A stretch of 64,000 nucleotides of DNA from a virus (Duplodnaviria > Heunggongvirae > Uroviricota > Caudoviricetes), in the IMG/VR virus record IMGVR_UViG_3300029288_000078, positions 54,733-118,732 of that record; one strand, 5' to 3'. The notes under the pieces are model-generated. The model was given only the letters and a program-made list of their open reading frames with translations. It ran no database searches and was not told where the DNA came from. Positions 41,727 through 57,719 of this stretch are shown piece after piece. The translations under genes were made by a program, and so were the position numbers. Each line of letters opens with the position of its first letter. The first letter of the stretch is position 1.

Positions 41727-41770
41727 TCCCCCTTTTATGAAGTGTTATTGATCGCCTTCTTCTATTACTT

Positions 41771-41797
41771 ATATCGGCAGAAAACGTCAAAACTTTA
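41771..41797 (-). promoter_or_regulatory. sigma-28-type promoter P3 (TAAAGTTT-N11-GCCGATAT)
   Basis: One mismatch from canonical TAAAGTTT-N11-GCCGATAA. Confidence 0.85.
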
Positions 41798-42343
41798 ATC
41801 GTTATTTTGAAGTATTTTGATTATTTTTATGGCTTGCTCAAGTGTAATATCAAAAGTTTTAATATTTATACGATTACTAGCACTTACATTTACTTGATGA
41901 TGATCATTTTTCGTGGTAAACAAATAAGGGAACTTCATTTCTTCGTATACATTGCCAGTTAATACAGCTAAAGTTTCACTGGTATTCATGGCAGCGGCAA
42001 GCGTACCGTTATCAATTGCCCATTGCCGTTTAATAATCTCTAATGCCTCGCGCTGGCCTTCTATTAGAGTAATTACAGCTTGCAAGTAATCATGTATAGC
42101 GAAACCTTTTTCTTGGAATTTTGTAGTTTTGTTTTTATCCAAATAAACAAAGTAAGTTGCATATTCTGCTTTTAAAAGTATTTTGATTAAATATTGGCGA
42201 TCATTTACCAATAGAAAACTAATACCGAAACATTCATTTTTAGCTATCAAGGTTTCATTGTAAACTGAAAAACCAGCTGTAGGATAGGCTAAATTTAAAT
42301 CACTGGCTAGCCTTTGGAGAAGATGTTTCGGTGTGGTATTCAT
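41795..42343 (-). CDS. Hypothetical early protein
   Basis: Start MNTTPK with GGGGTG SD, coupled to upstream gene. Confidence 0.65.
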   Translation of the reverse strand: MNTTPKHLLQRLASDLNLAYPTAGFSVYNETLIAKNECFGISFLLVNDRQYLIKILLKAEYATYFVYLDKNKTTKFQEKGFAIHDYLQAVITLIEGQREALEIIKRQWAIDNGTLAAAMNTSETLAVLTGNVYEEMKFPYLFTTKNDHHQVNVSASNRINIKTFDITLEQAIKIIKILQNND

Positions 42344-42869: not shown

Positions 42870-42917
42870 GTTCGTCCCCCCTTGTTAGTTGTTATTCGTT
42901 TTCTTCCCTCATATATA

Positions 42918-42944
42918 TTATCGGTACAAAACAGAAAAACTTTA
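42918..42944 (-). promoter_or_regulatory. sigma-28-type promoter P4 (TAAAGTTT-N11-ACCGATAA)
   Basis: One mismatch from canonical; GATC at 42954. Confidence 0.85.
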
Positions 42945-42963
42945 GCGGTATTTGATCGGTTTT

Positions 42964-44053: not shown

Positions 44054-44101
44054 ATTCATTCCCCTTTTGTTGTTACACCGATCCTCTTTCCTCTATTACT
44101 T

Positions 44102-44128
44102 ATATCGGCAACATTCCAGAAAACTTTA
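44102..44128 (-). promoter_or_regulatory. sigma-28-type promoter P5 (TAAAGTTT-N11-GCCGATAT)
   Basis: Near canonical; GATC at 44138. Confidence 0.85.
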
Positions 44129-44677
44129 ATCTTTTTTGATCGCTAATTTAAAACCTAGTTTAGTAATTTGAGCTAATAGCCGTGCCGTTTCTTGCCTGCA
44201 ATCTTCTTGATATTCAGGGTATAGATTTAAAGCATAGGAAAAAGGATCGGCTGGCCCTATCTTAAAGGCTTCTTGACTATCCCCCCCACCATATATGCCT
44301 ACAGTTTTATTTTCCAAATCCACAATATAATGCCACTCAACATCCCCATGTTTACCTAATAAAGAAGGCTCGAATGCCCCCCCTATACCCGTATCTTCCC
44401 CATAAGCGTCAACATTAGCGCCTTGCCCATACACACTAGTTGCCTCTCCAATGAGTAAACCTACAACTTGATCAACATGTAAACTTGCTTTTTCACTTCG
44501 AATGCTACCCTTGTTATATGCTTTAATTTGCTTTTGTGCCTTTTTTAAAGTTTCTACAATTATCGGCAAATTCCCTGTAGGATACCCATCGCTATGTTTG
44601 TACAATCTTACAGTTTGATCATGTTTGCTGTGAATTCTTTGCTTGCCAGTGATAACAATAATTGATCGTGTACTCAT
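44126..44677 (-). CDS. Phage hypothetical protein with YxHxDGYP motif
   Basis: MSTRS.I...RLYKHSDGYP and HGDVEWHYIVDL, a recurrent phage early-protein pattern. Confidence 0.7.
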   Translation of the reverse strand: MSTRSIIVITGKQRIHSKHDQTVRLYKHSDGYPTGNLPIIVETLKKAQKQIKAYNKGSIRSEKASLHVDQVVGLLIGEATSVYGQGANVDAYGEDTGIGGAFEPSLLGKHGDVEWHYIVDLENKTVGIYGGGDSQEAFKIGPADPFSYALNLYPEYQEDCRQETARLLAQITKLGFKLAIKKD

Positions 44678-44948: not shown

Positions 44949-45164
44949 TCACTCCCCCTTATATCCCAATACCTTGCCAAACCTATTCAATAAATACCCG
45001 TCTCGTATAGCTTGATCTTGTGCTCTTTCATTTGCCCCAGTAGCATCCCCATGAGAGCCTACAGTAAAACCATTACAGTTATCGCAAGCTTCAATATATT
45101 CACAAAAGTCATCATGGGTAACTTCTAAATAACCTTTACCCTCGCAACTTTCACATTTACACAT
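44949..45164 (-). CDS. Small CxxC-CxxC zinc-binding-like protein
   Basis: CESCEGKG...CDNCNG, DnaJ-type Cys pairs; after P6. Confidence 0.6.
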   Translation of the reverse strand: MCKCESCEGKGYLEVTHDDFCEYIEACDNCNGFTVGSHGDATGANERAQDQAIRDGYLLNRFGKVLGYKGE

Positions 45165-45928: not shown

Positions 45929-45974
45929 AATTTTCCCCCTTTGTTATACCGTTATCATTTTCCCTCTATATATA

Positions 45975-46001
45975 ATATCGGTAGAAAACTGGAAAACTTG
46001 A
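45975..46001 (-). promoter_or_regulatory. sigma-28-type promoter P7 (TCAAGTTT-N11-ACCGATAT)
   Basis: 11-nt spacer; GATC at 46011. Confidence 0.8.
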
Positions 46002-46020
46002 GCCTTTTTTGATCAATTTT

Positions 46021-47040
46021 TTAGCTTGCTTGTTTTTGTTTTTTTCGGCTTTGTTTGGTTGGCGCTGGATCTGTATTGGCCTTTAATACCCATTGACAGC
46101 TAAAATCTTCATTAATAGTGCAAACATGGTTAGGATGTTCGCATAATTCAAAGGTTGGCGTCAATATTACTTCTTCAATAATTGATCGCAATGCCCTTGC
46201 CCCAGTGCCTAGAGTCAATGCTTTTTCAGCTACCTTGCCCAATGCGCCTTCAGAGAATATCAAATCACAATTTAAAGCAGAAAACAGCCTAGTATATTGC
46301 GACACAATAGAATTTTCAGGTTTGGTTAATATATCTTTTAGTTCGTCAATACCTAGGGCAGTAATTTCAGCAATTACAGGCAACCTGCCCACTAATTCCG
46401 GTATCATTCCAAACTTTTGAAGATCGTATTGTGTTACCCTACCATCGGTTTTTGTAATGCCTACAAAAGCGCCCGAAACAATAAATAAGATATTCGAAGT
46501 GTCAATTTCAATCGTGCGAGATCCAGGATGTTTTCTGCCACTAGCTTCCCCATTAATGTGAACAGTGTGCCCTTCGATTATTTTCAATAAGCCTTGTTGA
46601 ACACCTTCCCCAGAAACATCCCTAGTAACCGACACACCAGCGCCTTTTTTAGCTTTTTTATCAATTTCATCAATAAAAATTATTCCGTGTTCGGTTGCCT
46701 CAATATCTTCCCCTGAAGCCTGATATAACCGCCCTATAACGGTTTCTACATCATCCCCTACATAACCGGCTTCAGTTAAACTTGTAGCATCGGCAATTGC
46801 AAAGGGAATATTTAAAAACTTTGAAATAATTTTAGCAAAGTGTGTTTTCCCGCAACCTGAAGGCCCCACCATTAAAATGTTGCTTTTTTCCAAATCTAAT
46901 TCAGGATGTTCCATGCGCAATAAGTGTTTAAATACCGCAACTGATAACGCACGCTTTGCCCCAGATTGATTTACAATGTGCTTGTTGAAAAAATTCACAA
47001 TATCTTTTGGGTTTTTGGTATTGACTACATTGGTTTTCAT
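46021..47040 (-). CDS. clpX: ClpX-like AAA+ ATPase lacking zinc-binding domain and IGF loop
   Basis: GPSGCGKT, ADATSLTEAGYVGDDVE, IIFIDEIDK, RDVSGEGVQQGLLK, RKHP, GRLPV and GARALR all ClpX-specific; no N-terminal C4 zinc domain; IGF segment absent. Confidence 0.92.
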   Translation of the reverse strand: MKTNVVNTKNPKDIVNFFNKHIVNQSGAKRALSVAVFKHLLRMEHPELDLEKSNILMVGPSGCGKTHFAKIISKFLNIPFAIADATSLTEAGYVGDDVETVIGRLYQASGEDIEATEHGIIFIDEIDKKAKKGAGVSVTRDVSGEGVQQGLLKIIEGHTVHINGEASGRKHPGSRTIEIDTSNILFIVSGAFVGITKTDGRVTQYDLQKFGMIPELVGRLPVIAEITALGIDELKDILTKPENSIVSQYTRLFSALNCDLIFSEGALGKVAEKALTLGTGARALRSIIEEVILTPTFELCEHPNHVCTINEDFSCQWVLKANTDPAPTKQSRKKQKQAS

Positions 47041-47095
47041 ATGCATTCCCCTTTTGTTAGTTGTTGTTACGCCGATCTTCTTTCCTCTATATATA

Positions 47096-47122
47096 ATATC
47101 GGTAGAAAACTGGAAAACTTTA
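47096..47122 (-). promoter_or_regulatory. sigma-28-type promoter P8 (TAAAGTTT-N11-ACCGATAT) driving clpX-like gene
   Basis: 11-nt spacer; GATC at 47132. Confidence 0.85.
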
Positions 47123-47136
47123 GCCTTTTTTGATCA

Positions 47137-47223
47137 TTAATCTTGTAATATATCCAAACCAAACACATCGGATAAAACTTTAACAGCTACAAAAACTAAA
47201 TAAAAAGAAATTATAATAGTCAT
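47137..47223 (-). CDS. 28-aa hydrophobic peptide
   Basis: MTIIISFYLVFVAVKVLSDVFGLDILQD with AAGGGGG SD; below ORF-track cutoff. Confidence 0.45.
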   Translation of the reverse strand: MTIIISFYLVFVAVKVLSDVFGLDILQD

Positions 47224-47355: not shown

Positions 47356-47400
47356 ACATGCCCCCTTTTTTGTTGAAACCGCTTTCTTCTCTCATATATA

Positions 47401-47427
47401 TTATCGGCACATTTCAACAAAACTTGA
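47401..47427 (-). promoter_or_regulatory. sigma-28-type promoter P9 (TCAAGTTT-N11-GCCGATAA)
   Basis: One mismatch from canonical; GATC at 47437. Confidence 0.85.
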
Positions 47428-47441
47428 GCCTTTTTTGATCG

Positions 47442-48216: not shown

Positions 48217-48258
48217 TTCATTCCCCCTTTTTGATCGCCAATAATTCCTCTATTACTT

Positions 48259-48285
48259 ATATCGGCAATATTCCAGAAAACTTTA
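48259..48285 (-). promoter_or_regulatory. sigma-28-type promoter P10 (TAAAGTTT-N11-GCCGATAT)
   Basis: Near canonical; 41-bp unit differs from P5 unit by one base. Confidence 0.85.
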
Positions 48286-48292
48286 GCACTAT

Positions 48293-48749: not shown

Positions 48750-48798
48750 AACACGTTCCCCTTTGTTAGTTGTTACCCTGCAAGTTCCTCTATATATA

Positions 48799-48825
48799 TT
48801 ATCGGCACATTTCAACAAAACTTTA
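48799..48825 (-). promoter_or_regulatory. sigma-28 promoter P11, perfect consensus TAAAGTTT-N11-GCCGATAA
   Basis: Exact match to canonical FliA consensus; GATC at 48835. Confidence 0.9.
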
Positions 48826-48839
48826 GCACTTTTTGATCA

Positions 48840-57354: not shown

Positions 57355-57375
57355 AAACTGTTTCCTCCTACCTTT

Positions 57376-57402
57376 ATATCGGCAGAAAAGGGAAAAACTT
57401 AA
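57376..57402 (-). promoter_or_regulatory. sigma-28-type promoter P13 (TTAAGTTT-N11-GCCGATAT)
   Basis: 11-nt spacer; isolated copy in right arm. Confidence 0.8.
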
Positions 57403-57719
57403 GATAAAGTTTGTTTAATGCCATAAATAGCTAGACCAACAAAGGCACCTGCAATGAAGCCTACGGGGCCTGCTGCTGCACCAAACCCAGCTCCACTTCC
57501 AACCATACCTATTGCAGTCATACCGCTTGCAGCGACCGCCGTACCGCCTGTTATGCCACCTGCTCCGGCTGCCATAGCTGCTTTAAGTTTTTTACCAGTA
57601 GGGCTTTCATCATCCATTAGCCGTTCAAAACCATCTTTAATATCTTCAAAATCCATTTGTTTCTCCTTTTTTCGTTTAGGATTTCTTGTTATCTTTCGCA
57701 ACTTTTGTAATTTATTCAT
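57399..57719 (-). CDS. Glycine-zipper membrane protein
   Basis: Start MNKLQKL with GGAGGG SD; C-terminal Gly/Ala-rich hydrophobic stretch with GxxxG repeats. Confidence 0.6.
   Translation of the reverse strand: MNKLQKLRKITRNPKRKKEKQMDFEDIKDGFERLMDDESPTGKKLKAAMAAGAGGITGGTAVAASGMTAIGMVGSGAGFGAAAGPVGFIAGAFVGLAIYGIKQTLS

Follow-up and report, generated by a model that had tools for sequence, protein, structure and literature searches.

The phage and the clpX locus

The window analysed here (64,000 nt) is part of a 182,732-bp IMG/VR phage record with a CheckV completeness of 100% and, besides the gene described below, encodes portal, terminase, baseplate and tail genes. The portal protein showed only 24% identity to that of Myxococcus phage Mx1 and 25% to those of Bacteroides phages, and a DNA search of the GenBank phage collection revealed no close relative. 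With a portal that shares only about 24% identity with that of any cultured phage, the phage is, judged by sequence, a distant uncultured tailed phage. Its DNA was matched in a single run, a landfill metagenome that may be the source sample. Seven tRNA genes were detected outside the window: six clustered (His, Gln, Cys, Tyr, Asn and Ser; 125823-126607 of G000:C1) and a separate Thr gene (158884-158966).

A clpX-like coding sequence lies on the minus strand (Table 1). An in-frame ATG upstream of its start, at 47046, would give a product of 341 aa (ORF 46021-47046, minus strand), and the residue numbering of this longer form is used throughout. The GGGG core of the Shine-Dalgarno sequence (47048-47051) is separated by 1 nt from the first ATG and by 7 nt from the second, at 47040, and the latter spacing makes the 339-aa form the likely product. 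This form agrees with the end coordinate given in the initial annotation and with the protein database entry P0002.

Pfam searches of the eight genes flanking clpX gave nothing informative. Two small reading frames were seen nearby, both on the minus strand. A 71-aa protein (44949-45164), encoded two genes downstream of clpX, carries a CxxCxGxG pattern and is weakly similar to the DnaJ zinc finger (16.7 bits, below the cut-off). A 28-codon hydrophobic mini-ORF (MTIIISFYLVFVAV...; 47137-47223) with a strong Shine-Dalgarno sequence of its own is located just ahead of the clpX promoter and has a promoter unit on either side.

Table 1. Features of the clpX locus. Positions are those of the window and residues those of the 341-aa form.
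Feature	Position	Strand	Details
clpX-like coding sequence	46021..47040	minus	339 aa + stop
Shine-Dalgarno AAAAGGGGA	47047..47055	minus	7 nt before ATG 47040
Walker A GPSGCGKT	46843..46866	minus	residues 61-68; invariant columns
Pore-1 loop GYVG	46756..46767	minus	residues 94-97
Walker B IIFIDEIDK, catalytic Glu127	46657..46683	minus	residues 122-130
Pore-2 loop RDVSGEGVQQ	46594..46623	minus	residues 142-151
RKH loop tripeptide	46528..46536	minus	residues 171-173
Remnant VGITKTDGRVTQY replacing the IGF loop	46426..46464	minus	13 residues, 195-207, between GAF and DLQKFG
Arg finger R221	46384..46386	minus	invariant alignment column
Sensor-2 GAR	46195..46203	minus	residues 282-284
Disordered C-terminal tail	46024..46080	minus	residues 323-341, pLDDT 45-69; last 15 residues Lys/Arg-rich, net +5
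Sigma-28 (FliA)-type promoter-like element	47096..47122	minus	-35 TAAAGTTT (47115-47122), 11-nt spacer, -10 ACCGATAT (47096-47103)
62-nt promoter/leader unit upstream of clpX	47075..47136	minus	direct repeat of 45954-46015, 94% identity
Second 62-nt promoter/leader unit	45954..46015	minus	directly after the clpX stop, serves the next gene
Sigma-28-type array, examples	41769-41798, 42916-42945, 44100-44129, 45973-46002, 47094-47123, 47399-47428, 48257-48286, 48797-48826, 57374-57403	minus	

Identity and motor motifs of the phage ClpX

The open reading frame encodes a true ClpX. Its product passed the NCBIfam ClpX profile NF003745 (386.9 bits, cut-off 359) and scored below the cut-off of TIGR00382, the other ClpX profile (344.6 vs. 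370.75), as expected after the loss of about 90 residues. Pfam recognized the AAA_2 and ClpB_D2-small domains; among the PHROGs, phrog_4339, the true ClpX family, was matched with an E value of 1.1e-88 and phrog_5534 with 2.6e-21. Solved ClpX chains were retrieved by phmmer with E values of 1e-84 to 1e-75 and 41-44% identity. An AlphaFold2 model of the protein had a mean pLDDT of 91.3, and its best 50 PDB matches in Foldseek were all ClpX chains (TM 0.70-0.86). HslU was rejected as an identity: the alignment showed no inserted I-domain, the TIGR00390 profile was far below its cut-off (191.9 vs. 362.45), and the genome carried no gene of the HslV/proteasome family.

Each of the motor motifs named in the initial annotation, which had described all of them as intact, was found in the translation (Table 1), and in an alignment of 70 ClpX sequences the catalytic and pore motifs fell on invariant or nearly invariant columns. 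A prediction of three-copy self-assembly (residues 12-320, using the 70-row alignment) reached a score of 0.28, with a mark of 0.42.

Loss of the zinc-binding domain and the IGF loop

The phage ClpX begins at the AAA+ module: its alignment to NF003745 opens at profile position 56, and HMMER aligned full-length solved ClpX chains to it from about their residue 62-66, past the zinc domain. Pfam zf-C4_ClpX (PF06689) was not found in the protein nor anywhere in the complete phage genome, and since a promoter lies directly upstream of clpX, no exon-like N-terminal piece is missing. The absence of a C4 zinc-binding domain, noted earlier from the translation, was thus borne out by the Pfam, NCBIfam and solved-chain alignments alike.

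The second deletion removes the IGF loop. The HMMER match to solved ClpX was always split into two pieces, with a break at query residues 200/201 at which 27 residues of the M. tuberculosis chain were skipped. In cellular ClpX (the best 80 matches among one genome per prokaryote species) this region measured 36-44 residues in all 80; an [ILVMF]G[FY] motif was located by script in 79 of these loops, and the 80th (L106) has IGF by inspection. The 13 residues that the initial annotation had counted between GAF and DLxKFG were confirmed. They hold no [ILVMF]G[FY] motif and were modelled by AlphaFold2 as a confident short turn (pLDDT about 90). The same IGF deletion was present in independent contigs from other samples, and it is therefore not an assembly artefact.

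Both deletions were seen in the HMM-based alignments to ClpX, the check named beforehand for them. An IGF- or LGF-equivalent loop elsewhere in the protein would have spoken against the initial annotation; on inspection of the translation, no IGF-like tripeptide was seen in the other surface loops, and the C-terminus (..KQKQAS) bears no docking motif of the HslU or HbYX type. The remaining genome was also searched for a cognate peptidase, as had been suggested, and neither ClpP nor a gene of the HslV/proteasome family was found in the complete phage genome.

Relatives without the IGF loop

Relatives were collected with HMMER by searching 1.84 billion cluster representatives exhaustively, and thousands of ClpX proteins were retrieved. 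Within the best 150, the loop was replaced in about a dozen clusters (50% identity) by a remnant of 10-21 residues without an IGF-type motif. The nearest relative, P0003, is 60% identical to the phage ClpX and has the same deletion together with an intact C4 zinc domain; it is encoded on a 3-kb contig next to small unannotated genes. The best cellular-type matches reached about 50-55% identity. Other IGF-less members were encoded on phage-like or mobile-element-like contigs bearing integrase, Dam, DUF932, CarD-like, or MoxR-like AAA_5 and DUF2201 genes.

From the best 80 IMG/VR viral loci, 72 ClpX genes could be parsed. An IGF-length loop was kept in 69 of these 72, most of them with the zinc domain, and both modules were absent in the other three, the 313-aa proteins of the related contigs L005, L007 and L008. 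When the ORFs of the phage were compared with those of six IGF-less loci, clpX was the sole gene in common, which indicates that the gene moves between unrelated phages. Neither a client nor an adaptor nor a conserved neighbour of clpX emerged from this comparison.

The presence of ClpP was tried as a discriminator and discarded: it was encoded in none of 4 IGF-less viral records and in 28 of 53 records with canonical ClpX, a difference in the expected direction but not significant (Fisher p = 0.11). Among near-complete phages with an IGF-bearing ClpX, ClpP was present in 8 of 13 and absent in 5.

Three further features were observed in these contigs and clusters. In two unrelated loci (P0197 and P0201) a DUF4314 protein of 69-72 aa is encoded directly after the IGF-less clpX (L004 1264-1482, L097 11414-11623 and L098 8716-8925); DUF4314 is absent from the present phage. 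In the IGF-less locus of P0124 (L094 4543-8472) clpX is followed by genes for a MoxR-like AAA_5 ATPase and a DUF2201 (vWA-MoxR-associated) protein, a second chaperone-like module. A metagenomic protein of 1238 aa (P0122) consists of several tandem ClpX-like AAA+ modules, with four matched stretches at 41% identity.

Phylogeny and selection

In a maximum-likelihood tree the phage ClpX (P0001) paired with P0003 (98% support). The pair was nested among IGF-less proteins, six in all, of which five have retained the zinc domain. The second IGF-less group in the tree, of five proteins, lacked both modules. The proposed lineage has 11 members (P0001, P0003, P0124, P0127, P0131, P0201, P0125, P0160, L005, L007 and L008), with loop remnants of 10-19 residues. 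Alignment gaps were treated as missing data in the tree, so that the shared deletion does not itself group the rows.

Constraining the two groups (clades A and B) together gave a log likelihood 33 better than that of the free quick-search tree (p-AU 0.88), nor was a tree rejected in which the 14 IGF-less rows form one clade (p-AU 0.072). The 11 nearest IGF-less ClpX proteins fit a single clade, a result which is compatible with common descent in these sequences and is no proof of it. Repeated independent loss of the loop was considered and set aside: the free tree needs 2-5 changes, but one clade of 14 is not rejected and clades A and B are better together. The simplest history would be that the loop was lost once in a lineage of phages or mobile elements, that the zinc domain was lost afterwards at least twice, and that the lineage persisted.

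Within the second group, L005 and L007 gave a dN/dS of 0.09 (dS about 1); in this branch, then, an IGF-less ClpX is under strong purifying selection. The occurrence of the same deletion in P0003, in about a dozen clusters and in three IMG/VR contigs, together with the low dN/dS, argues that the IGF-less state is maintained and not decaying.

Promoter and sigma-28-type array

The initial annotation had placed clpX under a sigma-28 promoter (P8), and a near-perfect match to the consensus does lie upstream of the gene (Table 1). The element has one mismatch to the E. coli consensus TAAAGTTT-n11-GCCGATAA (PMC2859248). From the end of its -10 box to the ATG at 47040 the distance is 55 nt, which would give a leader of roughly 50 nt. 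Neither sigma-70-like sites above chance nor terminators were detected between 45400 and 47900. Use of the sigma-28-type factor of the host, and early timing, are plausible for clpX.

The element belongs to an array: at least ten near-exact matches to the sigma-28 consensus are present on the minus strand between 38309 and 57403, each before a small gene with a strong Shine-Dalgarno sequence, and many are accompanied by an upstream box containing GATC. The 62-nt promoter/leader units on the two sides of clpX are direct repeats, and a third, weaker copy occurs at 47380-47441. Recombination between the bracketing repeats could have led to insertion of clpX, or could lead to its duplication or loss.

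A search for a phage-encoded sigma-28 gave no match to region 2 in the phage genome. Two adjacent small ORFs of 113 and 97 aa, outside the window (about 130275-130953 of G000:C1, minus strand; locus L180 1065-1743), resemble region 4 of sigma factors, and with the FliA/WhiG model the 97-aa ORF aligned over positions 149-223 (29 bits, E 7e-8). At the sigma-28-type promoters, their products might bind to the -35 boxes or compete for them.

Proposed function and alternative readings

IGF loops make most of the contacts between ClpX and ClpP, and changes of single residues or of loop length severely weaken ClpP binding (PMC7112951), in agreement with the statement of the initial annotation that these loops are needed for binding. 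ClpX without its N-domain is the fully active form used in cryo-EM structures (PMC7112951), and yeast MCX1, which has no IGF element and no ClpP partner, is a pure unfoldase (PMC10886707). With both deletions, an intact motor, no alternative docking motif and no ClpP or HslV in the phage, "uncoupled from ClpP", as first proposed from the sequence, is the natural reading of the protein.

The phage ClpX is probably, though by no means certainly, a ClpP-independent unfoldase or remodeller. It would form a hexameric AAA+ ring motor of its own that does not bind host ClpP, and would act during infection, transcription of its gene probably depending on the RNA polymerase of the host and a sigma-28-type factor. 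Clients would be bound through the pore-1, pore-2 and RKH loops, unfolded or dismantled with ATP, and then released instead of being fed to a protease. Candidate clients are a host complex that needs disassembly, or proteins otherwise destined for degradation by host ClpXP. The pore-2 loop, which is also a ClpP contact in canonical ClpXP, is retained; this fits a motor role and leaves room for a residual contact with ClpP. The 339-aa protein is small and looks easily expressed, and it offers a way to ask what a non-degrading ClpX motor does, and on which host or phage proteins.

The protein might instead poison host ClpX. Mixed hexamers with the host subunits would have too few IGF loops for ClpP, host ClpXP proteolysis would be lowered, and phage proteins, labile antitoxins or regulators could be protected; if host ClpXP were indeed blocked, the phage would encode a protease inhibitor of a new type. 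The AAA+ core of ClpX is kept in full, with about 50% identity to cellular ClpX, and the loop is cut out cleanly with its flanks retained, as would suit a subunit of this kind; phage SPO1 reportedly interferes with host ClpCP, and phages are said to target host AAA+ proteases. As IGF contacts dominate ClpP binding, fewer loops should weaken the hold (PMC7112951). A co-assembling poison should, however, track the ClpX of its host closely, and the nearest relative of the phage protein (60%) is an IGF-less phage protein, cellular-type matches reaching only about 50-55%, which makes poisoning less likely. The IGF-less forms are moreover an old lineage spread across unrelated phage contigs with no other common genes, several of its members retain the zinc domain, which suggests a substrate choice of their own, and host ClpX rings assembled before infection would not be quickly affected. 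Poisoning of host ClpX is accordingly regarded as unlikely.

It is more doubtful that the phage ClpX still works with a protease, docking to host ClpP or another peptidase through a different surface, through its basic C-terminal tail or through a phage bridging protein. The AAA+ unfoldases HslU and PAN dock through their C-terminal tails, and the disordered basic tail of the phage protein (+5 in the last 15 residues) is common to its clade-A relatives (+6 to +7); retention of the pore-2 loop also speaks for a protease partner. The tail is, however, polar and basic, unlike the hydrophobic tail of HslU or the HbYX motif, and some canonical ClpX proteins have a basic tail too, the enrichment being modest and calculated with kinship ignored. 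The phage has no ClpP or HslV, and no conserved neighbour is available as a bridge.

The protein could also be a host-takeover factor tied to the phage promoters: sigma-28 would drive the array at clpX and its neighbours, and unfoldase and host alternative sigma factor would form a positive loop. In enterobacteria the flagellar master regulator is reportedly degraded by ClpXP, and mutations in clpX are said to raise motility. We consider such a loop very improbable.

The idea that the phage captured a host clpX which is now decaying without function is close to refuted: two functional modules are gone, and repeated promoter units flank the gene as they might a passenger cassette, but the frame is open with all catalytic residues intact, the predicted fold is of high confidence, the same architecture recurs across 40-60% sequence divergence, related IGF-less genes have the dN/dS of 0.09 given above, and the GC content of clpX (0.386) matches that of the phage (0.373).

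Comparison with known systems

Bacterial ClpX (E. coli, N. meningitidis and M. tuberculosis; PDB 6wrf, 6vfs and 8yd0) has the same large and small AAA+ domains and the same motor motifs as the phage protein (TM about 0.8). It differs in its N-terminal C4 zinc-binding domain and its IGF loop, both of which are lacking in the phage protein, and the phage has no ClpP.

The ClpX proteins of jumbo phages (Agrobacterium phage Atu_ph07 gp2, Bacillus phage G gp258, Lak phages and Pseudomonas phage PA5oct) are 41-46% identical to the phage ClpX, and reviews have noted that phage ClpX may serve as a translocase or as an assembly chaperone (PMC7824862, PMC6102473). The cultured-phage ClpX matches listed at 40% identity or more all had about 28-37 extra residues in tblastn alignments, which is what retention of the loop would give. 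The bare-core ClpX/HslU-like ATPases of N4-like and other phages (phrog_5534) are likewise single genes without zinc domain or IGF loop, but share only 24-27% identity with the core of the phage protein. Membership in this family was rejected on the E values given above, and the phage protein is, by these profile scores, a true ClpX after module loss and not a member of the distant bare-core family.

A parallel by description is yeast MCX1, a ClpX orthologue without the IGF element in an organism without ClpP; MCX1 is eukaryotic and has a known client, ALA synthase. Phage ClpX, ClpP-independent roles of ClpX in bacteria and an IGF-less eukaryotic orthologue are already known. Literature searches turned up no account of a phage ClpX that lacks the IGF loop, an absence which is no proof of novelty. 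What appears to be new, from the sequences compared, is a lineage of true ClpX caught after the loss of the loop, with intermediates that still bear the zinc domain.

ClpX ranks among the best-studied protein unfoldases. Its two accessory modules have been dissected mainly by engineered truncation, and IGF mutations abolish ClpP binding in the engineered proteins (PMC7112951). The natural phage protein combines both laboratory truncations, removal of the N-domain and mutation or deletion of the IGF loop, but unlike the engineered forms it has evolved and been kept under selection in a phage lineage. That the same cuts were made naturally, and retained, argues for a recurrent need of phages for a protease-free ClpX motor.
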